Below are positions 1 to 33,675 of a stretch of 33,869 nt of DNA, one piece after another; position 1 is the stretch's first letter, and each line of letters opens with the position of its first letter. The notes beneath the pieces are model-generated. The model did no database searches and was not told the origin of the DNA. It saw only the letters and a program-made list of their open reading frames with translations. A program made the position numbers and the translations under genes. The DNA is from Chthoniobacteraceae bacterium (GTDB lineage: Bacteria > Verrucomicrobiota > Verrucomicrobiia > Chthoniobacterales > Chthoniobacteraceae): the NCBI GenBank assembly GCA_037190965.1, contig JBBCKI010000005.1, forward strand, positions 1 to 33,869. Direction: 5' to 3'.

Positions 1-3000
1 GACTCCGGCGTTTGTCCCGCCGACAACCGTCTTTTTCTCCCGATTATTGCCGCCGTCGTAGACGTAGGTCGTCGTGATGTCGACGCTTTCGTCGGAGCCA
101 AGGTCGACCGCTTCCCTATATAGCCGGTTGGCATTGTCGTAGGTGTTATGAACGGTGCGTGAGGGGAGCGTGCCCGTCAAGTATTGTTCCTCGACGGTCG
201 TTACGTTGCCCGCGAGGTCGTACTTGTTGAGCGTCAGGCTCAGGTCGTTGCCTCCTGCTTTTGCGAGGATGGTCTGTACCCGGCCGAGCGCGTCGTAGGT
301 AAACTCGCTCATTGTATCGGCGGGAAGCTCCTTCTTCCTCACACGGCCGCTCAGATCGTAGCGGTAGGTGGTTGTCCGTCCGCCCTCCGTCATGGTTTTA
401 AGACGGTTGAGGGCATCGTAGGTTGAAACGATGATTCGGCCGCTTCCACCATAGGTGACCTGGAGCCGGTTGCCTGCCAGGTCGTATTCGTACTGGTGGG
501 CGGCTCCTCCGCTTGTTTCGGTGACAACCCGATTGAGGGCGTCGTAGGTGTACGTGACGTTGGCCTTGCCGCTCTTCCCGGGCTCGATGACGGAGAGCAG
601 GTTGCCAGCGGCGTCGTAGCTATAGGTGCGGTTGCCGGCGGATGAGACGCTATAGTTTACGGTCTTCAGTCGGTGCCGGTTGTCGTAGCTATAGGTCGTC
701 AGTTGGCCATTGGCGTCGGTTCGGCTCGTTTTGTTGACGGAATTGTACTGGAAGAGTGTGCTCCGCCCAGCGGCATCGGTGCTCTTTGTGTTCCGATTGA
801 GTCCGTCGTAGTCAAAGCTCGTCGAATGTGCGTTGCCATCGATGACTTTGGTCCGATTGCCGACTTTATCGTATTCGTAGCTGACGGTGTTGTTGGCTCC
901 ATCGGTGGTGGTGCGCAGCCAGTTGAGCCCGTCGTAGGTGTTCTGGGTGACGTGTCCATTGGGATCGGTGACGCTCAGGACATTGCCGTTGGCATCGTAC
1001 GTCGTCGTTGTCGTTGGGCGTTTGCTCTGTCCGTCGGTCGGGTCGATGACCGCCGGGGCTTGTACCGAGATCGGCCGGTTGGCGTGATCGTAGACGGTAT
1101 TGCTCCGGTTTCCGTTCGGATCGGTGACCGCTACCAGGTTGCCGACGTTATCGTAATCCCAGGTGGTAACCGGTCTTGCCGCGTTACCGGTGACGGCATC
1201 GGTGACGCTTGGGCCGGTTTCGGTCCGTTTGCGGTTGCGTTCGTCGAATCCGTAGTTCCATTCGTTGCCAAGCGGGTTGATGACCGCGATGACATTTCCT
1301 GCATCGTCGTACGTCGTTTGGGTAACGGGCCGCTGGTTCCCAGGGAGGGTGGGTGCGAGGACTTTAACGGGCCGACCGGCGCGGTCGTACTCGGTTTCCG
1401 TCACCCGGTTGAGTTCGTCGACGATTTTCCATTTCAGTCCCGTACTGGTGTAAGAGCTCTGGACTCTCTGGCCGTCAGCATAAGTCACCTGCGTGGGCCG
1501 ATTGAGTGCGTCGAACGCGATATTTGTGGTTTTTTGCAGCGGATCGGTTTCCCGAATCTGGTTACCTACGCGATCGTAGCCGAACGTGCTCGTGGCGTAT
1601 TGTCCATTCCCGTATTGAACGGAGCGCGATGCGAGCCGGTACAGCCCGTCGTAAAGGAAGTTGGTCACATACCCGCGCGGGTCGGTGCTCCGGGTCGGCT
1701 TGAATCCCGATGAGTCGAAGACGCTCCCACCGGAGTTGACTCCATAGACATAGGTCGTTGTCCCCGCCGGATTGGTGGTGCTCTTGAGCCGCTGGATGGC
1801 GTCGTAGTCCATCGTCGTCTGGTTGCCGTTGGGATCGGTGACGGAGGTCTTTGAGTTAACTTTGTTATATCCGTACCGGGTGACGATGTTTTGGCCCGAA
1901 CCGGATGTTTTCTTAATGGAGCTCAGGCGGCTCAGGTCGTCGTAGCCGAACTCGGTGACGTGACCGTTTTCATCGGTTTCGAAAGTCTTGTTTCCGCGTA
2001 CATCGTACTCGAGGTGCTTCTCGCTGGCGTCGGCGTAAGTCACCCACGCCAGCCGGTTGCGGCGGTCGTATTCGAAATACGTGGTGTTGCCGTTGGGATC
2101 GGTCGTGGAAAGTTTATTGCCATTATGATCGTAGCCGTGGTGCGTGACGAGGTTAAGCCCGGATGGGTCTACCGTTTCGGATGCGATTCTGCCCGAACCA
2201 TCGAGACCATAGGAAGTCACGAGATTGCCCGCCCAGGCCGGATCGCCGGAAAGACGGTTGACGGTCCTTTGAGTCACGACGCCTGGGTGAGCAGAACTGC
2301 CGTAGGTGAAGGTCGTCTGCTGAACGGTCGCGCCACTGCTGTTTTTGATCGTCCCCACCGTGCGGCGCCCCTTGTTGTCGAGAGTGTACTCGGTCTTCCG
2401 CCCTTCTTCATCCAGGACGCTCGACATGATGCGCCACTGGGTGCCATAGGTGAACACCTTGGATTCCCCCTGCGCATTGGTCTGGCGGGTGGGATCGTCA
2501 TAACGGGCATTGAAGCCGCTAACTGGAAAGAGAGGCGTCGGGCTGCCCGAAACTACCCACACATCATCATAGGAGAAGGTGGTCGTGTTGCCGTTCATGT
2601 CCTTGGCGCTCTTCAGCGCCATGCCTGCGCCCGGATCGAAATCATAAACTTCCGACCCTCCGATGGGATGATCGATGGTCATCCGGGTGAAATAGACGAT
2701 TTTGGGCGCAGTGGTTTCAGCGCTGATCGCATCGATATTTGCGCTGACGACCTGTCCATTGCTGAAGCGATAGTCCGTCGTGTGGCCTTCGGCATCGGTC
2801 ACGCTAGTGATGCAGCGGCTGTCGAAGGTCAACTGGGGAACAGTATTATTGGCGTCAGACCCGTAGGTAATGGCAATGGAACTATTGTTCCGGAAGGTGG
2901 CGTAACCGTGGCTACCCGGCAGGGTAACCTTGGCGACATTGCGGGGTAGACCAGTCTGGGTGTAATAGCGACCATGCTTGGCGGTGTAGGTCCGCTTTGT

Positions 3001-3900
3001 GTGGTCAAACTCGTAGGTGAACGAGTACGTCTTCCCCAGGGGATCGCTAATGCTGCTCAGATCGCAGTGAAACTTTGGAACAGGAGCGTCCCCCGAATTT
3101 ATTGGGCTCAGGTCGTCTTCCACGGCGAAATCGTAGCCATAGTTTGTGACCCCTCCGTCGGGGGCTGAAACGCTGGCCAATTTCCACGCTTTGAAAGTAG
3201 CGCCACCGTAATTGTAGCTGATCTGGTCGTAGGAGTACCGATACAGGTTTCCATTGGGATCCCAAATCTTGGTAATCAACCCCTCGTCATTCTGGGCAAT
3301 GTAAATCGTCTGGTCGGGATGCCCGGACCGGGAGATCATCATCGGCGTCAGAGTCGATGCGTTGGCATAGGTGTAGACGAGCGAATTACCGAGGCGATCG
3401 ATGACGCTGGTCGCGCGGGAATACGAACGGTCTTCGTCCGGCCCCCCTTTCTGACGGTCGGTGCTGATACTCAGGTAAATTTGAGTCCACGAAAAAGTAA
3501 TCTGGTTTCCAAACTTTTGCCTGAAGGTATATCCGTCAAACGAGGTCAGGTAATCAGTCGCCTCCACGTTGGAGGTCGGCATCGGCTGCCATTTGTTGTA
3601 TTCGGAACGAATGAACCGATGGACCGAACCGTTTTCATCCGTGATATACGCGTAGGAAGGTTGGTCAGGCGCATTAACGTATTCGACATGGGGCGTCACA
3701 TTTGAACCCCATCCTATGCCGAATGGTCGATTGGGGCGCTCGTGAGGACGCAAACCGCTGCGCATCGTCCAGTTTTCAGAGGCCGCATTCCGACGAACTG
3801 AAAGCACGAGCGGACTTCCCGCTACCGGTACATAGACGTCTGTCGTGCTGTGTCGAAGCCCCATGGTCATCGCATCCACATAGGTCTCCTCCTTCTGTTC
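1..3900 (-). repeat. RHS/YD repeat region of the giant CDS, beginning with a DUF6531-like segment (LVLSVRRN...PFGIGWGS, ~3.9-3.55 kb)
   Basis: Dense YD-type repeats, seen as recurring gtcgta on the + strand, e.g. TYTYDALNR, YEYDLAGNR, TTTTYDANGNVLSVTDPNG, TDALGG. Confidence 0.9.
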
Positions 3901-6900
3901 GTCGGTCTCAGCGGACTGCTGAGGCTTTTCATCCGGGATCGGTCGCCCGTTCAGCGCGATTTTGCGATAGCGCGTTCCGGAAGCATAGTCCGCCGGGACC
4001 GTGTAGTCGCGTTTATCATCATCCACTGTATCCGGATCGGGTTGGTAAGTGACTGCGAACTGATCCTGACCCACTGATTGGCCATCAAAAATAGCGTCAA
4101 AACGGAACTGCAGGGTATCATCGACTTTAGCTCCGGACGTGGGGACAACGCGGAATGTGGTTCCTTTTGTCCCGGAATTAATCTCTTGCTGCGTAAATGT
4201 ATGGCCGCTGCTGAGAGTCTGCCCGGTCCTTGTATCGATCACTACAAATCCGGTGCCGGACCAATTCAGCGTATAGGTGGTGCCAGACGGTCCAGTAGCA
4301 TTCACGGAAAACTGAGAGGTCTGGCCTTTCTTTACAATGGCAGCCGAGTTCCTCTTTTCATCATAATCGAGTTTAATGCCCCCTTGGCTATAATAGACTC
4401 CATCATAGACATTGACATAAGGCGCTTGGATGAGGCAATAGTCCCCAGACGCTATTGATGCATCCCCGTCTTCCGGCCCCAAGGCCGCCTTGCGGAGATC
4501 AATTTCAAATTCTTCGGTTTCCCCAGGACCAGTAAGAGTAGGACGACGCGATTTTATAACCTGAATTTCAGGAGAATTGCCCTTTGGAACGAAAATTTCG
4601 TACCAATCAAGATGATGAACCCCAGGCTTTTTTGTCTTGTATTTGTATTTGTATTGACGCGCATCTATATAATCTCCGTCATGATCTAAATTCACTCCTC
4701 CAACCCAAGTGCCGTAGATGTTATGACCAGGGATCCACCAGGGGGATGGAGGGACGCTGCTCCAATCGCTGTACTCCGACATGCTCTCCAGAGCATCAGA
4801 CACAAACCGGTCGCTCGTGTATTCTTCAGACAGTGTTTCCACTTCTGCGCCCGATATAGAAGCGAGATCTTCGCCGGAACTATGCCAAATCCATCTTTTC
4901 TCCGTCGGCTCTACGGTGTAAGTCCAGTCAGCGTCTGGGTCAATGGGATAGATCAACCCAAATGGCGAGCCAAAGTAACTGGGTCTATACACATAATGAT
5001 TTACATGGCCGTTGGAGTTTGTATCAACAACCCAAGCTCCAGTTTCATCCCGAATAGCATTGCCACTATAGCTGGACGATCTTTCTCCATCATAATAATT
5101 TTTCCAATTCGCCCGACTCTGGAAGCGTGCGCTTCCCTCATAAGAGAAAGCGAATTCATATCCCTCACGAAAATATACCAGTGGGTCGATGGTGTCCGAC
5201 ATTGAATAGCTCGAACTTCCGCTGCTGTTCCAGTAATGGTATGAATACCCGTCAATTGGATGATCATTAGTCCATGCCTCTGAAGAGCTAGAATGCCCTG
5301 TTGCTGAGTATTTCAGGTAGTACTTCGGGGGCGCTCCGGGAACAAACTCCTGATAGCCGGGATTCCAAGCCCATATCCCCCGCGAGCGGTGCCAAAATTC
5401 AATTTCCCCCGGAACCTCGTAAGAAACAACGTTCGTGTAGGCTGTCTTATAAGACCCATTCTCACCGTACGCTCGATATTGATAACGTTTACCAGCAAGC
5501 AATCCGGTATCCCAGGTATTTGTCAACCAATAGGATATAGTCCTCAAAGTCTCCCAGGGACCATCGCTCACTTTCCGCTCGATGATGACGTCGGAAACGT
5601 TTGGAAACCGGCTTGAGAGTTTAATGTCGATTGTCGAAGAGTTGGTCTTGTTTTCGGGAGCACTCCATTGTGCTGAAACGCTTAACGTCGGCATATATCC
5701 CACGGATGATGATGAAGCGGGGTCCGGATCCGTCTGCGGCAACCGTCCTTGGCCCCCTGGCTCTGGTGGTGGGTTCGGACCTGTTCCACCATGGGATGGT
5801 CCACCAATCACTCCACCACTAGCGGAGACATTAATCACAAGCACCGCCGAGATCGCTTCGATCCCGTTGCTGTCAGTGACCTTCGCTAAGTACCTGTGCC
5901 CACCCGCCGTAATGCTGCCAATAGTCTGACTGTATGAAAGTACGCCTGAGCCGCCTCCGATGTTGAGCGATCCATCAAACAGATCGATTCGAGCAATGGA
6001 GCCGGAGACGGATGTAGCACTGGCTGTCAACGTTAAGCTCGAGCCGGGCGTAATCGGTGAAGAACCAGCAGAGGAGGTGAGGGTCACAACGGGAGGGGCT
6101 ACAGCCGTTACCGTCACAGGAGTGGAAATACCGACGCCGCCGTTGCTGTTGGTTGCTTTTGCGGTAAGGACGTGCTCTCCGAGAGTAATATCCTTCCAGA
6201 TAAACTTTCCGGCGATTGGCTCACCCAGCTTCGCCTCACCGTCGAAGAGTTCGATTTTGGTGATGCCGCCGGCGTCCGTCTGAGCCGTCGTCTCGATGAC
6301 CAGTGAACCTCCGGCTGCAATTGTGTCTCCATCGGAGGGAGAGTCGATCACAACCGTTGGCGGAGCATCCGCCATCAGGTTAATCGGGGAGGAGACGGAA
6401 ACGCCGCCTTTGTCATCCGTTACCTTTGCAATGAACTCGTGACTCCCGGGCGCAAGTGAACTGATCGTATATTCATACGGAGTTGTTGTGACGGTTGTGC
6501 GGAAAGAATTGTTGTCGTAAAATTGAACCGAAGCGATGGTTCCGTCGCTATCAGCCACGGTCGCGGTGACAGTCAAAGCCTCATTGGCCGGTACAATACT
6601 TCCGCTCGGCGAGGTTGCGATGCTGATAGTCGGATTGGCGTTGATCCGTATCGTCACCGGATCTGAAGTTGCCGTTCCGGCCCCACTATCGGTCACCTTT
6701 GCGGTCAGTGTATGCTCTCCCGCCGTCAATCCGGTGAGGTTCACAGAAAATGGACTTTTTGTGGCTTCACCAAGTTTGGTTTCACCTTCGAATATCTCGA
6801 CACGCGAGATTTGCAGGCCCGTACTCACCGTCGCGTAGGAGCTGACAGGCACATCGGCACCGGAAAGAAATACATACCCATTTCCCGGCGACGTGATTCG

Positions 6901-9900
6901 AATTGAGGGAGGATCTGCCGCGATCAAGGTGATAGTCTTTGACTGGGTGAAAACGCCCTGAGCATCCGTAGCTTTCGCGGTCAGCGAGTGGACGCCTTGA
7001 GAAATAGAAGCGATCTGAACCGTGTAGGGCGGCGTGGAGTCTTCTCCGATCTTCGTCTCTCCATTGAAAAATTCGACAAGGGCGATGCTTCCTCCGGCCA
7101 TGGGGCTGGCCGTCGCTGTCACGTCGACGGGGGTTCCCGTTACAACGACCGTGCCGGTAATCGGCGCCGTAATTTCCACCATCGAACTATCGGTTACTGT
7201 AATCGCGACGGGGGCGGAAGACGCGGTGACTCCTGCGTCATCCGTTGCCTTGGCCGTCAATGAGTGAGATCCCGGCTCGGGGCCCTGCCAAAAAAACGAA
7301 AATGGAGCCACAAAACTTTCACCGAGTTTGGTGGTTCCGGTGAAGAACTCAACCTTTGCGATGCTTCCATTGGCCGTTGAGGCTGTGGCTTGGAGGCGAA
7401 TCATCTCATTGCGGGAGAAGGTCTGGGCTGCCTGGGGATAGGTCAGCGTTACTGTGGGAACAGGCCGAATAGTGACGGAAACCGGCGCTGAAGTTCTAGC
7501 GATGCCTCGACTATCCGTGGCTTTCGCGGTAAGGACATGAATCCCCTCGGCCGTCCCGCTAAATGTCAATGACAGAGAAGCTGCCGCAGCTTCATCGAGC
7601 ATCGTGCCACCGTCGAAGACCTCAATTAAGGTGACCGTTTGTCCACTTGGAGAGACGGCTTCGGCTGCGACGGGTAGTTCAGCATCGATGGCAATCCCTG
7701 TATTCCCGCCGGGTGCGGTGATAGCTACATTTGGCGGAGCGTACGCTCGATAGAGATCCTGAACCTCGATTTCGCTCAACGCCTTGTGATAGATACGGAG
7801 ATCGTCCAATGCGCCGTCGAAATCACGAACCTCTTCGCTCTCTCCCGTCGCCTTTCCGACAAGAATGGAGGCGGTATCCGAAAGGATCGTCCCTGTCGAA
7901 CTGCCAACAACGACTTCATTGAGGTAGAAGGTCGCCTTGGTTCCATTGTAGACGACCACGGCGTGGTGCCATTCATCGGACGTCACGGAAGCAGGGCTCT
8001 GGAAATTAATGGTTCCGCCATTCTGGGTCGAGGAAACGAGGAGACGCGGCGAACCCAACTCCGATGGATGAACCTGGCCATTGTCGACAAGGAGTTGGAA
8101 TCCACTTGTCGACGCGGTTCCGGTTCTAATCAACGTGAACGCTGTCCCGTCGGGAATCGGATTATACCTAAACCAAACTGAAATGCTGAAAGGCTTGCCG
8201 GTAACCGGCACGATTCGATTGCTCGTATTGTCGATCTGCAGCGCCTGAACCGATAGTCCGCCGTCGAAGAGGATCGCTTTCTGAGACTCAATCCCCGTTC
8301 CACGGATGACGCCTGAGAGGGAGGCATCGTTGCCAACTCCCGATGAATCGGTCGCGATGTTTCCATCCGTTTCTTCAAAACGCCAGCGCCCCACCAGGGC
8401 GGCGGTATTCGCCGTAAAGGTAACCGGTGCGGCATCGCCAGCCGTCACCGAAATCGTGCTAGTCGTTGCTCCATAGAGCGGCTGCTTATAATGGACACGC
8501 GCTTTCCCCAAATCGTCGGTGGTGAGGGAAACTGTTTCCAGCAAGGGCGATTCGCCATCACTGGTCAGCGAGAGCTTTCCTCCCCCCTCCGCAACCGTAA
8601 AGCTTAGCGGTGCATTTCTCAGCGCTGCCCCGTTGGCATCAGCCAGGGAGACTTCCAGCGCCTGAGGCAGAAAGCAATTGGCCGGCGTTGTTTGATTGTC
8701 GCCGCCGCTCGTCTTTGTCACCGTCGGGTTCGCCCCGTTGTAGTAGTCAGTGGGATCGGTTTCGTTTTGGAACTCCTGCAGATTGGTAAGTCCGTCCCCA
8801 TCGCCATCTCCCGCAGGGTCAATTCCAATTTGGCCGAAGTGCTCGATTTCCCAGGAATCGCGCACGCCGTTCCAATCCTGGTCGCCATTCATGAAGAGCG
8901 TGCTCACCTGCACAACTCTCGTCGGGGTGACCACGCCGACAGGGTAAAGATGCGGAACTCCGGTTCCTCCTCCGGGTGGGATCGCGACGATCAGGTTGTG
9001 TTCAAGATCGTTTGTGGCGAGGAAACGACCGTCTGCCAACCTGGCCAATCCCGCAAATTGGGTATGCTCTCCGCTGGAGACGGGTGAACTGAACGTGAAG
9101 GTTTTGCTGACGTCCGCCAGATCATCAGGGTCCCACATCCGTATCTTGCCGGTACTATCGTGATCGATCGTTGCCAGTTGTGTATCGCTGATCGCGATCG
9201 TCTGCCGCCCGTTCCCGAAGCCCGCTGAAGAGCTGACTTCGCGAACCCGCCATCCAAATGGCTTTGTAGGCCGTGCGTTGAGATAGTACGCCGCTGCGGT
9301 GCTTCCGCCATATTGAACCCATAGTTCCCGGCTGGCACGGCGATATGCCATTCCATAAACGGGGCTGCTTGAAAGCGCGGGATCATTAGTCCCATCTTCC
9401 TTGAGCAATGGAGTCATTTCTGGATTCCAGCTAGCCAGTATGAGGTCGTAGAGCACAAAATAGGGCCGACCATCCGTTTTTCTCACGATCAGATAGATCT
9501 TCTGGTCTACACGCTCGATGGCATCGAGAGACTGGATCGCCCCGGAGGCAAATGGCGTCACGTGATCGGTGTAGTCCGCATTGGAACCTGGAGCGTTAAG
9601 ACGATGATAGTTCCTCAATACCAACTGCTGCGTACCGTCGATATATCCCCACCAGAATCCTCCATGGGGATCGCTCGTAATCACGCCTTCCCCGAGACAC
9701 GGGAAAGCTCCCAATTTCAAGAGGCTATTATTGAATACGTGAAACTCCGACCCTGCAACGGTGACAATTTGCGACAGAGCGCCCTGGGAAACCGTTGGAT
9801 CGGTTCCGTTTCGGTATTCCTCAAGATTTGAGCGCCCATCGTCATCCGGGTCCGCGTTGGGATCCGTTCCGGTCTGGCTAAAATATTGCCTCTCCCACGC

Positions 9901-11961
9901 GTCAGGAAGGCCATTATGATCGGCATCCACCTCGATGGCCTGCGCTGAAAAGCTTACATCGCCAGAGGTGCCCGCCGATACCTGGATCAGGCTATTCGCG
10001 CCATCTTGTTGAGGCTGTCGGTAGTAAACGAAAGCTCTTCCGTCGGCTCCAGTCCGCAGCGACAGGGTGACAGGAAGAGGATCCACGTCCGAGGTGGTCA
10101 TCGCCAGTCCTCCTCCGTTGCCCGTCAGGACGTTGAATGTCACGGGAGCATTGACCAGCACTTCCCCATTCCCATTTCGGACTTCGACTCCCAAAGCATC
10201 GGCGAGGAATTCCCCGGGAGGGCCCACCTGGCCGTCGGTTCCGGGAATGGCGACAACAACAGGGGTGACTCCATTGTAAAAGTCAGTCGGATCGCTCCCA
10301 GCGTTAGATTCTTGCAGATTCGTTCGGCCATCGCCGTCGGGATCGGCATTTGGATCCACCCCTAACTCTCCGAAGTATTGAACTTCCCACGAATCTGGTA
10401 AGCCATTCCAGTTTTGATCGTCTTCAGGCAAAAAGTGCGCGCTGACCTGCGCCATTGACCACGTGACTGTATTCTGCGGATAGATTTTTGGAGTCCCTGG
10501 CCCACCCTGCGGTGGGATCACCATCAGCATCGTCTTGATCCCGTTTGTCGCCAGGAAACGTCCATCGGCCAACGGCAGCAATCCGTTGAAGTCGCTATAT
10601 TCTCCTGTCGAAATCCGCCCCCCCAAGTTTCGTGAAGGCAGGCGATCCGGATCCCAAACTCGGATGAGTCCGATACCGTTGTAATCGAGCGTCGCAAGCT
10701 TACTATCGTCGAGGGCTATAATCTGCCTTCCATTTCCAAACCCAAAGGTCTCCCACGTAGCGCGGCGGTTTCGCCATCCCAAAGGTTTACCTGGCTTCTC
10801 CTCCGTAAAGAATGAGGAAGCGGCTCCCCCGGTCTGCATCCAAAGCTCGCCGCTTTCCCGCCGGTGTGCCATCCCAAAGATCCAGTACGTCGCAATCGGG
10901 GAAGAGTTACCGGCATCATCGCCTCCATTTTCGTCACGCAAAGGCGTCATCGGTCCCCATGTTTGCCGCGCGACGTCATAAGATGTCAGGTAGTTCGAAG
11001 AATCGACCTTCCTCACCGCCATGAAGATCTTTTGGTCAACGCGCGTCATGACGTGAACCCTCTCCAACGTACCCGAAGTAACAGCGGGCGCGATCAATTC
11101 ACCGTAATCTGGCGTTTGGCCCGGCTCGTTCACACTCTGGTAATTCCGCAGCACCAGCCGTTTCGAGCCATTGATGTAACCAAACCAGAACCCGCCATTC
11201 GGGTTGGCCACCATTTGTCCAGTCCCAGGGGCTGGAAAACTCCCGAGTACATCAAAATTTGTCCCATCCAGAACGGAAAACTTGCTATCCACCTGGCTCA
11301 CAACCGGGAATGGAAGCCCCTGAGAAACGACTGGATCCGTTCCATCCCTGTATTCCACCAGATTGCTCCTTCCGTCGTTGTCGGGGTCAGCGTTGGGATC
11401 GATCCCGATGTGACCGAAGTAGAACTGTTCCCACCAGTCGGGAAGACCGTTCAGGTCGGTATCATGCGCCGGATCCACACTGGTGAGATCAAACGAGAAC
11501 AGGTTTTTCACCTGGCCGATATTGGCCATCGCGTAGTCGTTGGCTGGATTTTCCGCCTCACTCCAAGGATATTTATCGGTGTATCCAACCGCAATCAGCC
11601 GGTCATAGAACGGTTTGGCAATCGCCTTGAGCTGCCCAAGGTTAACAACTGCGTAGTCGGACGTGGCTGATGTGGGAGTCTTCCAACCATCCACAAGATT
11701 TCGAAGATGAACGCCGGCTCCCCCGGGCAACCTTAGATCAAGCTCCGCTGCTGCTGCACGGGCGATGTTCTTAACCTGCCCTTGGTTGACCGCTGCAAAA
11801 TCCTGAACATTGGTTCCTGAGATCACCGGCGGATTCGACGTCGTCCACCACGATGGCGCGGACGCGATCACCGCGATCGGCAAAATCGCAATAATGAGCA
11901 AAAGGGAGTAAAGCCTTACACTTCCGAAGCCTTTTTTGGGGTCAGGAGACGGCCGGTTCAT
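1..11961 (-). CDS. Giant secreted RHS/YD-repeat protein (>=3987 aa, 3' end outside window)
   Basis: ATG at 11961, with an in-frame TAA just upstream (11992-11994). It reads MNRPSPDPKKGFGSVRLYSLLLIIAILPIAVIASAPSWW (signal-peptide-like). Spot translations in this frame are open at ~10.8, 5.3, 4.5 and 3.4 kb and at the edge (...ITTTYVYDGGNNREKKTVVGGTNAGV). The track lists no long minus ORF here, consistent with a stop-free frame leaving the window. Confidence 0.9.
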   Translation of the reverse strand, partial: MNRPSPDPKKGFGSVRLYSLLLIIAILPIAVIASAPSWWTTSNPPVISGTNVQDFAAVNQGQVKNIARAAAAELDLRLPGGAGVHLRNLVDGWKTPTSATSDYAVVNLGQLKAIAKPFYDRLIAVGYTDKYPWSEAENPANDYAMANIGQVKNLFSFDLTSVDPAHDTDLNGLPDWWEQFYFGHIGIDPNADPDNDGRSNLVEYRDGTDPVVSQGLPFPVVSQVDSKFSVLDGTNFDVLGSFPAPGTGQMVANPNGGFWFGYINGSKRLVLRNYQSVNEPGQTPDYGELIAPAVTSGTLERVHVMTRVDQKIFMAVRKVDSSNYLTSYDVARQTWGPMTPLRDENGGDDAGNSSPIATYWIFGMAHRRESGELWMQTGGAASSFFTEEKPGKPLGWRNRRATWETFGFGNGRQIIALDDSKLATLDYNGIGLIRVWDPDRLPSRNLGGRISTGEYSDFNGLLPLADGRFLATNGIKTMLMVIPPQGGPGTPKIYPQNTVTWSMAQVSAHFLPEDDQNWNGLPDSWEVQYFGELGVDPNADPDGDGRTNLQESNAGSDPTDFYNGVTPVVVAIPGTDGQVGPPGEFLADALGVEVRNGNGEVLVNAPVTFNVLTGNGGGLAMTTSDVDPLPVTLSLRTGADGRAFVYYRQPQQDGANSLIQVSAGTSGDVSFSAQAIEVDADHNGLPDAWERQYFSQTGTDPNADPDDDGRSNLEEYRNGTDPTVSQGALSQIVTVAGSEFHVFNNSLLKLGAFPCLGEGVITSDPHGGFWWGYIDGTQQLVLRNYHRLNAPGSNADYTDHVTPFASGAIQSLDAIERVDQKIYLIVRKTDGRPYFVLYDLILASWNPEMTPLLKEDGTNDPALSSSPVYGMAYRRASRELWVQYGGSTAAAYYLNARPTKPFGWRVREVSSSAGFGNGRQTIAISDTQLATIDHDSTGKIRMWDPDDLADVSKTFTFSSPVSSGEHTQFAGLARLADGRFLATNDLEHNLIVAIPPGGGTGVPHLYPVGVVTPTRVVQVSTLFMNGDQDWNGVRDSWEIEHFGQIGIDPAGDGDGDGLTNLQEFQNETDPTDYYNGANPTVTKTSGGDNQTTPANCFLPQALEVSLADANGAALRNAPLSFTVAEGGGKLSLTSDGESPLLETVSLTTDDLGKARVHYKQPLYGATTSTISVTAGDAAPVTFTANTAALVGRWRFEETDGNIATDSSGVGNDASLSGVIRGTGIESQKAILFDGGLSVQALQIDNTSNRIVPVTGKPFSISVWFRYNPIPDGTAFTLIRTGTASTSGFQLLVDNGQVHPSELGSPRLLVSSTQNGGTINFQSPASVTSDEWHHAVVVYNGTKATFYLNEVVVGSSTGTILSDTASILVGKATGESEEVRDFDGALDDLRIYHKALSEIEVQDLYRAYAPPNVAITAPGGNTGIAIDAELPVAAEAVSPSGQTVTLIEVFDGGTMLDEAAAASLSLTFSGTAEGIHVLTAKATDSRGIARTSAPVSVTIRPVPTVTLTYPQAAQTFSRNEMIRLQATASTANGSIAKVEFFTGTTKLGESFVAPFSFFWQGPEPGSHSLTAKATDDAGVTASSAPVAITVTDSSMVEITAPITGTVVVTGTPVDVTATASPMAGGSIALVEFFNGETKIGEDSTPPYTVQIASISQGVHSLTAKATDAQGVFTQSKTITLIAADPPSIRITSPGNGYVFLSGADVPVSSYATVSTGLQISRVEIFEGETKLGEATKSPFSVNLTGLTAGEHTLTAKVTDSGAGTATSDPVTIRINANPTISIATSPSGSIVPANEALTVTATVADSDGTIASVQFYDNNSFRTTVTTTPYEYTISSLAPGSHEFIAKVTDDKGGVSVSSPINLMADAPPTVVIDSPSDGDTIAAGGSLVIETTAQTDAGGITKIELFDGEAKLGEPIAGKFIWKDITLGEHVLTAKATNSNGGVGISTPVTVTAVAPPVVTLTSSAGSSPITPGSSLTLTASATSVSGSIARIDLFDGSLNIGGGSGVLSYSQTIGSITAGGHRYLAKVTDSNGIEAISAVLVINVSASGGVIGGPSHGGTGPNPPPEPGGQGRLPQTDPDPASSSSVGYMPTLSVSAQWSAPENKTNSSTIDIKLSSRFPNVSDVIIERKVSDGPWETLRTISYWLTNTWDTGLLAGKRYQYRAYGENGSYKTAYTNVVSYEVPGEIEFWHRSRGIWAWNPGYQEFVPGAPPKYYLKYSATGHSSSSEAWTNDHPIDGYSYHYWNSSGSSSYSMSDTIDPLVYFREGYEFAFSYEGSARFQSRANWKNYYDGERSSSYSGNAIRDETGAWVVDTNSNGHVNHYVYRPSYFGSPFGLIYPIDPDADWTYTVEPTEKRWIWHSSGEDLASISGAEVETLSEEYTSDRFVSDALESMSEYSDWSSVPPSPWWIPGHNIYGTWVGGVNLDHDGDYIDARQYKYKYKTKKPGVHHLDWYEIFVPKGNSPEIQVIKSRRPTLTGPGETEEFEIDLRKAALGPEDGDASIASGDYCLIQAPYVNVYDGVYYSQGGIKLDYDEKRNSAAIVKKGQTSQFSVNATGPSGTTYTLNWSGTGFVVIDTRTGQTLSSGHTFTQQEINSGTKGTTFRVVPTSGAKVDDTLQFRFDAIFDGQSVGQDQFAVTYQPDPDTVDDDKRDYTVPADYASGTRYRKIALNGRPIPDEKPQQSAETDEQKEETYVDAMTMGLRHSTTDVYVPVAGSPLVLSVRRNAASENWTMRSGLRPHERPNRPFGIGWGSNVTPHVEYVNAPDQPSYAYITDENGSVHRFIRSEYNKWQPMPTSNVEATDYLTSFDGYTFRQKFGNQITFSWTQIYLSISTDRQKGGPDEDRSYSRATSVIDRLGNSLVYTYANASTLTPMMISRSGHPDQTIYIAQNDEGLITKIWDPNGNLYRYSYDQISYNYGGATFKAWKLASVSAPDGGVTNYGYDFAVEDDLSPINSGDAPVPKFHCDLSSISDPLGKTYSFTYEFDHTKRTYTAKHGRYYTQTGLPRNVAKVTLPGSHGYATFRNNSSIAITYGSDANNTVPQLTFDSRCITSVTDAEGHTTDYRFSNGQVVSANIDAISAETTAPKIVYFTRMTIDHPIGGSEVYDFDPGAGMALKSAKDMNGNTTTFSYDDVWVVSGSPTPLFPVSGFNARYDDPTRQTNAQGESKVFTYGTQWRIMSSVLDEEGRKTEYTLDNKGRRTVGTIKNSSGATVQQTTFTYGSSAHPGVVTQRTVNRLSGDPAWAGNLVTSYGLDGSGRIASETVDPSGLNLVTHHGYDHNGNKLSTTDPNGNTTYFEYDRRNRLAWVTYADASEKHLEYDVRGNKTFETDENGHVTEFGYDDLSRLSSIKKTSGSGQNIVTRYGYNKVNSKTSVTDPNGNQTTMDYDAIQRLKSTTNPAGTTTYVYGVNSGGSVFDSSGFKPTRSTDPRGYVTNFLYDGLYRLASRSVQYGNGQYATSTFGYDRVGNQIRETDPLQKTTNIAFDALNRPTQVTYADGQRVQSSYTSTGLKWKIVDELNRVTETEYDRAGRPVKVLAPTLPGNQRPVTQTTYDDAGNVIAVINPLGNEWNYGFDERNRKRTETGPSVTDAVTGNAARPVTTWDYDNVGNLVAVTDPNGNRSNTVYDHANRPISVQAPAVIDPTDGQSKRPTTTTTYDANGNVLSVTDPNGHVTQNTYDGLNWLRTTTDGANNTVSYEYDKVGNRTKVIDGNAHSTSFDYDGLNRNTKSTDAAGRSTLFQYNSVNKTSRTDANGQLTTYSYDNRHRLKTVNYSVSSAGNRTYSYDAAGNLLSVIEPGKSGKANVTYTYDALNRVVTETSGGAAHQYEYDLAGNRLQVTYGGSGRIIVSTYDALNRLKTMTEGGRTTTYRYDLSGRVRKKELPADTMSEFTYDALGRVQTILAKAGGNDLSLTLNKYDLAGNVTTVEEQYLTGTLPSRTVHNTYDNANRLYREAVDLGSDESVDITTTYVYDGGNNREKKTVVGGTNAGV
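5825..7735 (-). repeat. Seven tandem ~90-aa bacterial Ig-like domains in the giant CDS
   Basis: Repeating P-x-V-x-I-T-x-P ... I-x-x-V-E-F-F-x-G-x-T-K-L-G-E ... G-x-H-x-L-T-A-K-A-T-D, with a period of ~270 nt. Confidence 0.85.
7745..8400 (-). other. LamG / concanavalin A-like lectin domain in the giant CDS
   Basis: LVGRWRFEETDG...FSISVWF...DEWHHAVVVYNGTKATFYLN...FDGALDDLRIYHKALS is a typical LamG signature. Confidence 0.85.
8410..11465 (-). repeat. Tandem duplication of a ~510-aa module (TSP3-like repeat, unknown beta-rich domain, TSP3-like repeat, invasin/Big_1-like domain)
   Basis: Four DxDxNG[LV]xDxWE..FG..DP..D.D.DG..NL.E...DP repeats (~11460, ~10420, ~9930, ~8885). Paired segments GGFWFGYINGSKRLVLRNY / GGFWWGYIDGTQQLVLRNY and RVDQKIF / RVDQKIY lie about 1.54 kb apart. 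Confidence 0.85.
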
Positions 11962-12036
11962 AATAAGTCTGCCAAAGGGGGAGCCCGATGTTTACGGAAG
12001 GGGCGTTAAAACGAAGAAATCACAATCACTTGCCTT

Positions 12037-14811
12037 TTACTCCGGGAGCGGACCCGCAATGAATGATCCCATGGAAAGATCTCCCTGCTCGGGAATCAGC
12101 ACCAGGTGATTGCTTCCCGAAGAAACAATCTTGGTGGCTGTGGTAGTCCCGGAAGTAACCTGCACCGCCGTCCCCGTTACGATAAAGCCGCCTGCCGCGA
12201 CTTTCGTTGTTCCAGAGAGAGTAATACCGTTGGCCGTACCGCTGGCCGTCACGTATCCCGCGCCATTCACAAGCTGATTGGTATTCGTAGGGATTGTCGG
12301 CAACCCTGATAAAGAAGCGTAGTCACCGCTGGTTGCGACTTCGGACAATCCAGTGACCTGGGTGGCCTGAATTGTCCCGCTCAGGATAGCGGCTGTGCCG
12401 CTGGTCTGGGCAAATGCGGCCGTGCCGCTGGCCGTGATATAACCCGCTCCATTGGCCAACTGATCGTTGTCCACCGGGATTGTCGGAAGTCCAGTCAACG
12501 AGCTATAAGCCCCAGTGGTTGCGACAGCCGACAACCCGTTCACCTGCGTCGCGGGAATTGTTCCAGATATGGCCAGGGCTGTTCCGCTGGCGACCACAGT
12601 CTGGAGGTTGTTACTGGCCGATAATATAGTCCCATCCGGAAGCGTCAGCGAACCGCTACCGGAAATGGCAAGATTTCCCGACACCTTGCCGTCTCCGCTG
12701 ACATCGAGCGCCGCTTGCGGAGCCGCAGTGCCAATACCGACCTTACCGTCACTCCTCACAAACAGAGCCGACGTCCCCGAATAACCCTGAGCATCAAGCA
12801 GTCCGAAGGTTGCAGAGTTCACATTTCCCCTGATAACCAACTGGCTTCCCGGAGCTGGAATATTTCCCTGCACGCCGCCAATTTGAACATTCCCTTGGCT
12901 CGTTGCGCCTTGAACACCTGATGATTGAATGAAGACGTTTCGCGAAGCGGAATCCGTTCTCATGTACCAGCCTCCATCAGCCTGGTTCACGAAGAGGTAA
13001 TTAGTAAAGGAGGGCCCCGAAAGTTCGAGCACCGGGTCCAAACCCGAGGTGCTATCGATCCTCATTCGCGCCCCAGCCCCTCTAATGTGAAGAAGCTGAG
13101 CCGGTGTCGTTGTGCCGATACCGACTCTCCCATTCGAAAGGGTCAACCCTGAAGCCGCGGGAAGGTAACGTGTGTCCGCAGCAGTCTGTGTGAGAAGAGC
13201 GCTTCCATTTGCCGTTGCAGTTCCGCTGATGGTCAATCCACCGGTGATGACTGTGTTCGCCAAGGTGGTGTTGGCGGTTCCGCTGTTTACGACATAACGT
13301 TGATCCGCCGACCCCTGTGTTAGCACGCTGGTGGGACCATCAATTGCATTCGGATCCAAAACAAGCTGCGGGGGATTACTGGCGGCGGTACCCGTCAGGA
13401 TTAAGCGATTGGAGGAATCAAGCTTCATCGCTGACACCCCAGTCCCCGAAACAGCCCTTCTCCAAACCCACTCCAGGCCCTCCTCTTGCGCCTGAATGGT
13501 CAAAGCGGGATTGTTAGCACTCGCTTCATAGCGCATCGAAACCTTGGCTGAACTCGTCTCGGCGTTGTAAACGCCGAGGGAAATCCCGGAGCCCTGAACG
13601 TCAGCCGTTCCACTGAGCGTAAGGCTCCCATGAACCACTGTGTTTCCGTTCTTCTTGACAACAAAAGCATTGGACGGCTGGTAAAGAGTATTTCCCGAAG
13701 AATCTTTTTGAACAGAAGTTCCGCTCATCAATGGTACACTCCCATTCCCAACTACAAAAAGGTCATCTTCAGGGATCCATTGACTTGAATGTCCTTGAGG
13801 AATATTAAACCTTCCAACTACGAACTGTCCCATCCCTTGAGAGACGGTTTTATGTCCAGCAGCTATGGATTCCACCCCAACTGATCGCGAGAATGGCCCG
13901 CTAGCAACTGATCGCACTCCATCAGATTGAGAAGAATTACCACTTGCAGTGGAGTTGGCCCCGAAAGCTTTAGAGCCTATTCCCCTAGCAGTAGAAAATT
14001 GTCCCGACGCCATTGCATTGGTATTGTAAGCAGTTGCGCCCAATGCACGCCCTTCTGCCGCAATTCCTACAGAGAATGCAATGTTTGCAGTAGCTTTAGC
14101 TCCCGATCCGAAAGCTGATGCCTCCTCTCCACGTGCTTCAGCATTGTTTCCAATGGCCACAGTCGAGCCATCCGCTTGCGCACCGGCGCCAAAAGCAATT
14201 GAACCGAAACCTGCCGCTTTTGCCTCGGGTCCCGCAATGGTATTTGCACCGCTTGCTGTACCTGTAGTAAAGGCTAACGCTGGGCCATAAGGATGCAAAT
14301 TAACTTGGAGAATTTCGCTTTTTATATACCTATTATCAGCTGAGTTAATGGTCAGGACATTCGAAGAATTACTGCCTCCCGATGGATCTAGAATAACTGA
14401 TGGATTCCCCAGGACGTCATAAATTGTCAGCACGTGGTCCGAATCCATCTTCATCATCGGAACCGTAGCGGTCTGATTTTCATTCTCGTGCTCCCAAACC
14501 CAGCCATGAAAAGCACGAGTAGCCGTGAACCTTAAAAGCGACGATTCAGACGTGCCCGAAATGACGGCGTCGGCGTAAGTAAGAGTAATACCCGGAATGG
14601 CGCTATTTGTCCCCGACGTGCCGAGGGTAAACTCATTTCCTCGAATATCGGCATTTCCGCTCACATCGAGATTACCGGCAACAGCGAGATCGGAGGCACG
14701 GACATCCACACCGAGGAGAAACATCGCTCCAATAGCTGCCGGAGCGAGATTCAAGATTGCTCGGCCACCGGTCCATGCTTCGGAAAAGTTCTTACTACGG
14801 TTTGATGTCAT
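12037..14811 (-). CDS. Secreted fibre/adhesin-like protein with YadA-head (Hep_Hag)-type repeats and tail-fibre-like repeats (~924 aa)
   Basis: ORF 12037..14880; I prefer the ATG at 14811 (MTSNR...AIGAMFLLGVDVRA, signal-like). It has AxAxGxxSxAxG repeats (~14260-13830), two G[RK]VGIGTxxP motifs, a duplicated ATxGxYxSLxGLPTIP..QLxNGAGY[IV]T, and no C-terminal beta-barrel. Confidence 0.8.
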   Translation of the reverse strand: MTSNRSKNFSEAWTGGRAILNLAPAAIGAMFLLGVDVRASDLAVAGNLDVSGNADIRGNEFTLGTSGTNSAIPGITLTYADAVISGTSESSLLRFTATRAFHGWVWEHENENQTATVPMMKMDSDHVLTIYDVLGNPSVILDPSGGSNSSNVLTINSADNRYIKSEILQVNLHPYGPALAFTTGTASGANTIAGPEAKAAGFGSIAFGAGAQADGSTVAIGNNAEARGEEASAFGSGAKATANIAFSVGIAAEGRALGATAYNTNAMASGQFSTARGIGSKAFGANSTASGNSSQSDGVRSVASGPFSRSVGVESIAAGHKTVSQGMGQFVVGRFNIPQGHSSQWIPEDDLFVVGNGSVPLMSGTSVQKDSSGNTLYQPSNAFVVKKNGNTVVHGSLTLSGTADVQGSGISLGVYNAETSSAKVSMRYEASANNPALTIQAQEEGLEWVWRRAVSGTGVSAMKLDSSNRLILTGTAASNPPQLVLDPNAIDGPTSVLTQGSADQRYVVNSGTANTTLANTVITGGLTISGTATANGSALLTQTAADTRYLPAASGLTLSNGRVGIGTTTPAQLLHIRGAGARMRIDSTSGLDPVLELSGPSFTNYLFVNQADGGWYMRTDSASRNVFIQSSGVQGATSQGNVQIGGVQGNIPAPGSQLVIRGNVNSATFGLLDAQGYSGTSALFVRSDGKVGIGTAAPQAALDVSGDGKVSGNLAISGSGSLTLPDGTILSASNNLQTVVASGTALAISGTIPATQVNGLSAVATTGAYSSLTGLPTIPVDNDQLANGAGYITASGTAAFAQTSGTAAILSGTIQATQVTGLSEVATSGDYASLSGLPTIPTNTNQLVNGAGYVTASGTANGITLSGTTKVAAGGFIVTGTAVQVTSGTTTATKIVSSGSNHLVLIPEQGDLSMGSFIAGPLPE
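12232..12572 (-). repeat. Two ~62-aa tail-fibre-like repeats
   Basis: SGTIPATQVNGLSAVATTGAYSSLTGLPTIPVDNDQLANGAGYITASGTA versus SGTIQATQVTGLSEVATSGDYASLSGLPTIPTNTNQLVNGAGYVTASGTA. Confidence 0.85.
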
Positions 14812-15295
14812 TTTGTAGTTCCTTTGATCACGCCAATTCAACTGACACGAGTACAGCCTTCGTCGAAGGAATCCAATCACTTTTGCTAAAACAATCTCAG
14901 CCCATCATAAAATCCTAATGAAGAGCTGAAAGCAAGAGCACGAATGGATGTGAGCGATTTGAACTCGCCCTGTAATTTTGCTGTCGACCCCGCTCCAATT
15001 TGAGATGATTCAGTATCACAAATGAAAACGATCACAACGTGAACATACTCGATGTGAACACCTATGGGCGGGCAGCATCTATGTCATGGATTCGCCGCTA
15101 TTTCGATTTCGGTCGCCTTCATTGCATCCAGCCCACAGGGTATTCCGACACCGGATGCGCTCGAACGCGTTTGCCTTTGCTTTCTTGGATCTGATGAAAA
15201 GATGCCAGATCCATCGATTCAAGAACTCCATGGGAATGATCCATCACTCCCGCTGCATCCTCACCGGTAAAACCCCAACAGAAACAATTACATCA

Positions 15296-15345: not shown

Positions 15346-15417
15346 TGGGTTGGCTGGGACTCGAACCCAGAACCAACGCCTTAAAAGGGCGCTGCTCTAC
15401 CATTGAGCTACCAACCC
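15346..15417 (-). tRNA. tRNA-Lys (anticodon UUU), CCA not encoded
   Basis: The reverse complement GGGTTGG TA GCTC AATGGTA GAGC A GCGCC CTTTTAA GGCGT TGGTT CTGGG TTCGAGT CCCAG CCAACCC A folds as a full cloverleaf. Confidence 0.96.
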
Positions 15418-15603
15418 GTCTTGTCCGACGTTTCCCTCTGAAAAGAGGGACGGACTGTTTACGCGAGGACGGCGCGTAACGCAAGCAAAGAACGTGCAGA
15501 AATTTTTGGGACACAGGAATTTCGGTTTTTTTTTCCGCCGGATCCTCCCCCGGATGGCAATTTGCTTGCCGCCCGGGCGGGTGGAGAGAAAATCAGGGCC
15601 GAT

Positions 15604-26623: not shown

Positions 26624-26770
26624 AAAAGGGATTCCTAGCAATGCCGGTAAAATGGACAACCGGACAAACCCCGTAGTTCTACGAGGCTGGCGAGGCGGCA
26701 AGGCGGCAGGGGGGGCGTTTCCAGAGAGGGCTTGCCACGCAGAAAGATTAGGGCTCAACTGCAAGGCATC

Positions 26771-33144: not shown

Positions 33145-33675
33145 CTATCGCCAATCATCGCAGCGAAACACAGGCTCACCTCCCGGCAGCCATTCATGCG
33201 CCGACGAATAGCGCCAATGCTCCGGAGCCGCAACCAAGCCCGCGCGAACCGGGTTGTTATGCAAATATTCCAGCTTCTGGAGCATCATCTCATCATGGGT
33301 AATCTCTTGGGGATGAAAACCTTCCTGCCAGATCTGATGAGCGCTGGTCTTATGATTGGCCCGGTAGTAACTGAGTTGATTCAGAAGCCATTCCCGCCTT
33401 TCTTCCTCAAGCCGCGCCACGAGCCGCCGCGCAGTGAATTTCTTGAGATCAGCGAGAATTGAGCTGAGGTCGGGCGCTGAAACGATGGCGTGGAAATGGT
33501 GATGAAGAATCACCCAGCCATAGATTTTGAGACCTTTGTTCTCGCGGCAAAATTGCAGGGAATCCGCGAGGATGTCGCAGCAGGCTTGCGTGGTGAAGAC
33601 GGGCAGCCACTCGACGATGGTGGAGGTGATGAAATGCGCCGCGTCGGGTCTGCTGACTCTGTAGCGGCTGCGCAT
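33145..33675 (-). mobile_element. REP-associated tyrosine transposase (RAYT, Y1 HUH family)
   Basis: 176 aa; HFIT, YGWVILHHHFHAI (HUH motif), IWQEGFHP, YLHNNPVRAGLV, WRYSS; flanked by inverted hairpin repeats. Confidence 0.92.

Follow-up and report, generated by a model that had tools for sequence, protein, structure and literature searches.

A fibre tail and a triple-neck domain encoded side by side in Verrucomicrobiota: a predicted docking module for RHS proteins and other cargoes

We analyzed a window of 33,869 nucleotides (nt), that is, the whole stretch of DNA under study, comprising positions 1 to 33,869 of contig JBBCKI010000005.1 from a Chthoniobacteraceae bacterium (GCA_037190965.1). 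The analysis centers on two genes, one for a fibre protein without a membrane anchor (gene 1) and one for a giant RHS protein (gene 2). A sequence-only reading of the window had described them as co-oriented and 75 nt apart; this arrangement was confirmed, with both genes on the minus strand. Translation from the ATG at 14811 yields 924 amino acids (aa) for gene 1, and an alternative GTG start at 14880 is possible. A single contig of the likely source sequencing run spans the gene 1/gene 2 junction, which does not constitute independent support, and read mapping in that run did not recover the missing end of gene 2. The features of the two genes are as follows.

12037..14811, minus strand: gene 1, anchorless fibre, 924 aa, with signal-like residues 1-39, YadA head, beta-rich repeats and putative docking tail
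13813..14280, minus strand: YadA/Hep_Hag head repeats, gene 1 residues 178-333 (phmmer to 1p9h, 7o23, 9u93)
12043..12108, minus strand: putative docking tail xPxGD[LIV]SMGxF, gene 1 residues 902-923, key Met914 (conserved in alignments, predicted interface)
1..11961, minus strand: gene 2, giant NTD-TSP3-Ig-LamG-RHS protein, at least 3987 aa, C-terminus beyond the contig end
11863..11961, minus strand: signal-peptide-like residues 1-33 of gene 2 (read from the sequence)
11482..11862, minus strand: N-terminal domain (NTD), putative single-chain triple-neck socket, gene 2 residues 34-160, 127 aa (AlphaFold2, YadA_stalk in relatives, complex model)
11770..11802, minus strand: neck-like repeat 1, from residue 54 (motif, alignment, complex model)
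11626..11658, minus strand: neck-like repeat 2, from residue 102 (motif, alignment, complex model)
11506..11538, minus strand: neck-like repeat 3, from residue 142 (motif, alignment, complex model)
7759..8211, minus strand: LamG-like lectin domain, residues 1251-1401 (Pfam PF13385, E 4e-22)
5812..7734, minus strand: seven Big_7 Ig domains, residues ~1410-2050, approximate limits from the translation (Pfam PF17957, 7 stretches)
1..2658, minus strand: RHS/YD repeat core, residues ~3102-3987, incomplete (PF05593, 18 stretches; NF041261; tblastn to a cassette on contig C4)

Most of what the sequence-only reading had said of the two proteins was upheld. Both have signal-like N-termini, as judged by eye and with a hydrophobicity rule. 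Residues 178-333 of gene 1 match solved YadA, BpaC and CbpF heads (phmmer, E 1e-5 to 2e-4), with a weak match to Pfam YadA_head that falls below the cut-off (E 6.5e-4). The description of 'tail-fibre-like repeats' needs one qualification: a PHROG tail-fibre match is lacking in gene 1 and was obtained only in relatives (phrog_9942, in 3 of 5 other fibres scanned). The homology to YadA heads suggests that the gene 1 fibre is a homotrimer; single-sequence AlphaFold2 prediction gave no usable fold (predicted local distance difference test (pLDDT) 33). As proposed, gene 1 ends exactly in a short tail, and models of the YadA beta-barrel anchor (PF03895), S74 and PEP-CTERM do not match it at E<=0.1; its C-terminal end has no hydrophobic helix and lacks the features of a PEP-CTERM sorting signal. 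Gene 2 consists of a signal-like leader, the NTD, TSP3-like and Ig repeats, LamG, seven Big_7 domains and the RHS core, and the three reported copies of D[FY]AxxNxGQ[VL]K start at residues 54, 102 and 142.

These copies resemble DAVNxxQL, which the available text of one study gives as the neck consensus that starts a coiled coil (PMC7247746); the necks of trimeric autotransporter adhesins (TAAs) are described, in the text available for another, as structural elements that connect beta-domains to the stalk (PMC2483945). The suggested neck likeness was borne out by homology: Pfam YadA_stalk (PF05662) matches 16 of 48 NTD members (best E 3e-7), the NTD of gene 2 itself not being among them, and the weak PDB sequence matches of the NTD are necks (SadA 2yo0, E 0.33; BadA 3d9x, E 0.4). 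Neither Pfam nor NCBIfam has a family of its own for the NTD. In the AlphaFold2 model (pLDDT 83), each motif forms a short strand and a helix, in agreement with the neck-then-helix order of TAAs. Among 227 NTD proteins, the domain begins within 70 residues of the N-terminus in 221, and a hydrophobic stretch precedes it in 198 of 199; a prepilin-like signal, considered for gene 2, was rejected, with the pattern matching only 23 of 221 leaders. Three proteins have the NTD at their C-terminal end, namely, P0091 (subtilase-like), P0092 (RHS) and P0149 (a repeat protein). L030, L058, L059 and P0077 show insertions of entire domains, either ahead of the NTD or between its repeats 1 and 2; the loop between these repeats apparently accepts large insertions.

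Tail and NTD occur together in this genome. A loose regular expression for the three-repeat motif matched 3 of 36,144 stop-to-stop open reading frames (ORFs), and because this loose pattern finds only NTDs, the repeat motifs are not a chance occurrence. A tail expression likewise matched three ORFs genome-wide, each directly upstream of an NTD gene. The genome accordingly holds three tail/NTD pairs and no unpaired member; the other two are on contig C7. In one of these, the fibre is rich in Hep_Hag and the NTD gene is truncated; the second has a fibre that lacks a YadA head, a 1,684-aa NTD protein and then a small signal-peptide gene. The truncated NTD gene (C7:19661-21216, locus L001) ends before repeat 3, is followed by an immunity-like gene and is likely a deletion remnant.

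Loci of Chthoniobacteraceae, the family to which the window belongs, served to build one profile of the NTD and one of the tail, and with both we searched an independent sample of 300 Verrucomicrobiota genomes from other families. The motifs adjoin in this sample, too, as the sequence-only reading had anticipated: both are present in 25 genomes, the tail only in 3, the NTD only in 6 and neither in 266. On the same strand, 29 of 41 tail matches lie no more than 700 nt upstream of an NTD, and 35 of 41 are within 7 kb; conversely, a tail is present within 700 nt of 27 NTD matches and within 7 kb of 34, out of a total of 51 to which some genes contribute a second piece. Of the three tail-only matches, one falls within an ABC transporter, another precedes a start codon and the third seems real, and in several genomes whose NTD gene has no adjacent tail, the tail gene is on another contig. 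In 100 genomes of the window's own family, which are not an independent test, both motifs were found in 33, the NTD only in 5, the tail profile only in 7 and neither in 55; four of the seven tail-only genomes match only the beta-repeat part of the profile. The possibility that the tail is a known anchor or sorting signal found no support, as no such model matches it and it occurs almost only beside an NTD.

A search with the NTD profile retrieved 2,702 clusters of proteins (50% identity). The named relatives belong to Verrucomicrobiota (Chthoniobacteraceae, Opitutaceae, Methylacidiphilaceae, Akkermansiaceae and others), one NTD protein carries the label Terriglobales, and none was found in viral contigs or annotated phages. 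An NTD on a 2.5-kb contig of a metagenome-assembled genome labelled Sphingobacterium was set aside as probably misbinned, with 0 of 200 other genomes of that phylum containing the domain.

Only the two short modules stay constant in these loci. In 65 of 71 tail proteins, the end of the tail is no more than 12 residues from the C-terminus. The bodies of the tail proteins are unrelated to one another; classified with our own patterns, they include 19 Hep_Hag-like, 15 with VGIGT repeats, 5 collagen and 2 with a phage-type neck. Library searches are in partial agreement: YadA_head (PF05658) was matched by 5 of the 23 tail proteins searched, a collagen-like adhesin by 4 of the 48 fragments and tail-fibre PHROGs by 3 of 5 fibres. 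Trimer formation is common to YadA heads, collagen and tail fibres. The fibre body, be it a YadA head, collagen or tail-fibre repeats, is exchangeable while the tail is retained. What follows the NTD varies as well, including RCC1, TSP3, LamG, Ig, vWA, hydrolase and RHS domains.

In addition to genes in tandem, tail and NTD are found in one chain. Five NTD proteins from three genomes carry a short beta-segment and a tail, 10-31 nt before the NTD match, and each of these cis fusions is accompanied by a tail-type gene upstream, a combination that a 2+1 heterotrimer would account for. The likeness of the cis segment to the upstream fibre was judged by eye, with a shuffle test on one pair in which 20 of 500 shuffles reached the score. 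At L134 (3576-5330) and L117, two different tail genes stand in tandem before one NTD gene, and one protein has two tail motifs; mixed occupancy of the NTD socket is possible in these cases.

A complex of three 55-residue fibre ends and one NTD, modelled with our own alignments, reached a score of 0.65, compared to 0.02 for the best of three controls (0.02 when an unrelated chain of 63 residues served as control). Agreement among the runs extends to at least 93% of the contacts, the partner pLDDT is at least 82, and the interface comprises ~240-260 contacts in a three-fold arrangement. All three fibre copies are predicted to touch the NTD via gene 1 residues 902-923, and in the lowest-error contacts the three Met914 residues are distributed over Gly61/Gln62, Gly109/Gln110 and Gly149/Gln150, so that each repeat receives one; the tail Met and the repeat GQ are conserved columns in the tail and NTD alignments. 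This confident model reproduces the pseudo-symmetric 3:1 register that had been put forward from the sequence, and physical docking of the fibre tails on the NTD is, as predicted by the model, very likely. The best PDB match of the tail profile (window 12043-12108) is a hairpin of a phage-baseplate spike protein (4s37 residues 50-82, E 0.0012), a likeness that could reflect either shared origin or convergence. The tail profile has no neck match in the PDB, and the pre-tail region weakly matches 8ol4 (E 0.97).

The cargo was counted in 26 loci with at least 4 kb of downstream sequence, one locus having been excluded for insufficient length. Four of the 26 have an NTD-RHS fusion, and 13 have an RHS gene within 2 kb; in one of the 13, what comes next is in fact another fibre-NTD pair. 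Hydrolases also occur as cargo, as do short adaptors with a separate RHS gene after them. The core-end motif PxxxxDPxG (our own regular expression) is present in 11 of 23 RHS-type relatives, and the 11 C-terminal extensions have no pairwise BLAST match among them. Among 54 C-terminal or downstream pieces, Pfam identified TNT, M35 and reprolysin peptidases, a nucleotidyltransferase, two hydrolase-type domains and one SUKH, and small genes lie downstream of the variable ends of complete relatives. An orphan RHS cassette on contig C4 is 67% identical to gene 2 residues 3710-3987 (tblastn) and is followed by a SUKH gene; a second one, at C7:31441-34455, comes after a transposase and ends in an HExxH domain. 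These loci match the organization of polymorphic toxin systems as laid out in the available text of Zhang et al. 2012 (PMC3482391), and the cargo is, by its gene organization, often a putative polymorphic toxin, although it need not be RHS. Of the original proposal of a surface adhesin-cargo pair, then, the docking part is supported by adjacency and the model.

Other layouts of the cargo were also noticed. At L128 (2322-18104, plus strand) and L129 (539-16447, minus strand), the order is a short tail protein (~90-110 aa), an RHS gene and an NTD-RHS gene, the former RHS gene ending in a possible dockerin-like repeat, as judged by eye. Further, 35 of 227 NTD proteins (within P0007-P0193) contain no toxin and end in a lone beta-strand, LxLxVYTP or TPPxITxxxP, that resembles a first Ig strand; they are often followed by a separate RHS gene (L039, L040, L044, L050, L054, L055, L058, L135), and the lone strand could possibly serve as a second, donor-strand link to the RHS protein. 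With 12 downstream proteins divided among several unrelated N-terminal types, a second link from short adaptors to the RHS protein that follows was not established. The downstream genes of L039, L040, L044, L054, L055 and L135 encode a signal-peptide RHS family with a shared N-terminal region, two of them matching Peptidase_C39.

The sequence-only reading had the pair working without a type VI secretion system (T6SS) or a type Vc anchor, and these markers are indeed missing: VgrG (TIGR03361) and PAAR (PF05488) were not found in any of five NTD-bearing genomes, including this one (97% complete), with controls matched, and neither was the YadA anchor (PF03895), with a control matched in E. coli. 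SprA of the type IX secretion system was found in 0 of 5, in a search without a positive control match. Models of two-partner secretion (TPS) match neither gene 1 nor gene 2, and 29 wide loci, inspected by eye, show no recurring transporter gene beside the pair. All five genomes have secretins and MshEN-type domains, and Sec combined with a secretin channel would be the simplest export route.

Taking these results together, we consider it moderately probable that the products of genes 1 and 2 form a polymorphic toxin particle that is secreted and guided by its fibre, with three fibre tails docking on the three NTD repeats. Sec would carry both chains across the inner membrane, and the fibre would trimerize, as YadA-head homology suggests. 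The NTD would be a neck and short helical stalk rebuilt as one chain, acting as a 3-to-1 adaptor at the place where the YadA anchor would normally come, a prediction supported by gene adjacency and the cis fusions. The complex might then exit via a secretin-type channel of the type II secretion or type IV pilus kind. Outside, the variable fibre would bind a target surface, the Ig/LamG chain would serve as a tether, and the RHS shell would hold a self-cleaved C-terminal toxin, with the small downstream gene providing immunity. The socket would be a general connector for varied cargoes. Tentatively, and as a possibility that we rate somewhat short of probable, this would be a phylum-wide plug-and-socket system, with the neck split over two genes, that fits any trimeric fibre with the 20-residue tail onto any monomeric cargo and yields free antibacterial particles mixed combinatorially, a diderm counterpart of umbrella toxins.

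Several observations weigh against the toxin-particle reading or temper it. The docking of the tails on the NTD is a prediction, not an experimental result; the model may partly recall solved TAA necks, and the score calibration, in which 116 solved complexes out of 157 scored as high, as did 2 of the 215 mismatched pairs, used single-chain pairs rather than 3:1 jobs. In the 300-genome sample, 17 of 51 NTD matches are without a tail match in the surrounding 7 kb, 6 of 31 NTD genomes lack one altogether, and the counts are not a formal probability, given that kin share loci and the genomes are not independent. None of the fibre-type patterns used was detected in 26 of 71 tail proteins. Nine of the 26 loci have no RHS nearby, most C-terminal or downstream pieces have no Pfam match, so that the 'toxin' label rests largely on organization, and gene 2's own C-terminal domain lies beyond the contig end and is not in the assembly. 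With respect to export, secretins are common in the phylum and unlinked to the locus, and TpsB/ShlB-type transporter genes, present in 3 of 5 genomes, do not occur at these loci.

The nine loci without RHS would also fit a different role for a complex that does dock, namely, one that stays on the producer surface as an adhesin or contact-dependent filament with a further anchor, its main role being adhesion or enzyme display. YadA heads, LamG, Ig, vWA and TSP3 are typical of surface adhesins, and some NTDs are at the C-terminus of subtilase-like or other cargo; however, anchor models match neither protein, and complete RHS proteins end in variable domains followed by small genes, so we regard such a filament as rather unlikely. 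Some tail proteins are very short (~50-115 aa), and some tail genes lie 6 kb away or on another contig, as could be expected if the tail were a co-secretion or assembly signal that the NTD binds briefly, in chaperone or piggy-back fashion, before the proteins part after export. This appears improbable in view of the three-fold predicted interface with its ~240-260 contacts, the description of the neck as a structural element in adhesins in the text available (PMC2483945) and the cis fusions, which retain a mini beta-fibre and a tail on the cargo.

The closest folds to the NTD are SLH pseudo-trimers, 6bt4 (Z 7.1, root-mean-square deviation (rmsd) 4.6, 104 aligned residues) and 6cwc (Z 6.3, rmsd 3.9, 99 aligned), and SLH trimers are also the top, non-significant rows in Foldseek, which gave no match at E<=0.001; as an SLH-like pseudo-trimer, the NTD might accordingly anchor the giant protein by binding a glycan of the cell surface, and the fibre would be no more than a co-transcribed partner. 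Yet Z values below 8 are common for helical models, and identity in these matches is 3-10%; the 48 NTD members contain no SLH sequence motif and no match to SLH Pfam models at E<=1, whereas YadA_stalk matches 16 of them, and tail adjacency, cis fusion and the predicted register would be left unexplained. We consider this explanation very improbable. We give still less credence to a mobile cassette shared by two motifs that never touch, with the model score reflecting memory of adhesin necks: the NTD does have a weak sequence likeness to solved necks (SadA 2yo0, BadA 3d9x), and the loci look island-like, but only the two short modules are conserved while their surroundings change, the tail has no neck match in the PDB, the unrelated 63-residue chain scored 0.02, and there are five cis fusions.

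The toxin-particle reading shares traits with several known systems without coinciding with any. With the type Vc TAAs (YadA, BadA, SadA, BpaC), the pair shares the YadA-type head of the fibre and the neck motif, found in gene 2; unlike in TAAs, the neck is in the second protein, three in one chain, rather than in gene 1, and the head is optional. With no beta-barrel anchor in the fibre or in the five genomes, the pair is not a TAA. Nor is it a two-partner or contact-dependent inhibition (CDI) system, with no TPS match and TpsB unlinked, or a T6SS effector. The T6SS provides a 3:1 symmetry-breaking link of a trimer to an RHS effector through VgrG-PAAR-RHS; here, VgrG and PAAR are missing from five genomes and both proteins have signal-like N-termini. 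RHS polymorphic toxins, as presented in the available text of Zhang et al. 2012 (PMC3482391), similarly have a signal peptide, repeats, an RHS core, a variable C-terminal domain, a small downstream gene and orphan cassettes with SUKH, but the present loci add an N-terminal socket and a dedicated upstream fibre gene; the word YadA is absent from the main text of that survey.

In the Streptomyces umbrella particles (available text of PMC11062931), repeats of the toxin chain likewise recruit separately encoded, diversified receptor-binding arms, and the particles are secreted and made of several proteins, but there five spokes were shown, whereas here one trimeric fibre on three necks is predicted, in a diderm phylum. 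ALF repeats have no Pfam match in gene 2 or the NTD proteins scanned, and Pfam detected no UmbB adaptor or trypsin-lectin spokes; UmbA and UmbB were not searched by sequence. The T-even (gp37)3-gp38 tip (6F45; available text of PMC6851490) is similar in that a trimeric beta-fibre is capped at its C-terminus by a monomer, whose N-terminal three-helix bundle makes three equivalent contacts; in that case, however, the monomer is the adhesin and inserts Trp residues into pockets of the trimer, whereas here the fibre Met is predicted to sit on the GQ of the monomer and the trimer is the likely adhesin. No homology to the umbrella particle or gp37/gp38 was detected. For the phage tip, PHROG, phage and fold searches gave no match; gp38 is absent among the listed fold matches of the NTD, which does not exclude it. 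The Bdellovibrio MAT fibres (available text of PMC10769870) also combine a signal peptide with a mosaic trimeric fibre without a type Vc anchor, but gene 1 and 23 tail proteins lack S74, and no toxin docking is reported for MATs there. That text also describes a conserved ~130-aa domain after the signal peptide, as at the gene 1 N-terminus, and the two may be homologous. The N-terminal module of the gene 1 fibre (residues ~38-164; window 14320-14700) recurs at ~393-507 (window 13291-13635, minus strand) and is also present in both C7 fibres.

Upstream of gene 1, the pair is flanked by a tRNA gene.

15346..15417, minus strand: tRNA-Lys(TTT), 535 nt upstream of gene 1

At this tRNA, GC content falls from ~0.62 to ~0.54, a step that could be an island border. 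Contigs of the likely source run branch at 15422, and the join to the housekeeping region beyond may vary among strains or copies. Adjacency to tRNA is not general (any tRNA in 6 of 41 loci), and promoter and terminator scans gave counts at chance level. Between 15562 and 31887, the window contains ordinary genes (plsY, gpsA, cysH/cysD/cysNC, transketolase, a two-component pair and a glutamine synthetase-like gene), with an autotransporter-repeat protein at 23723-26764; a REP-associated tyrosine transposase is at 33148-33675 (minus strand). Transposase-like genes, identified by eye, recur directly after toxin loci L001, L040, L047, L048, L050 and L124.

Altogether, the tail and the NTD make up a real, widespread, docking-type module that is apparently undescribed: no description was found in the accessible literature, supplements, which could list such domains, being outside its scope. 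Verrucomicrobiota are abundant in soil and fresh water, and the literature that we found does not deal with how they deliver RHS toxins in the absence of a type VI system; a named two-part module would mark such loci. If the docking is as predicted, this would be a clear example of the conversion of a homotrimeric connector to a single-chain adaptor, and also a small, genetically encoded trimer-to-monomer coupler.

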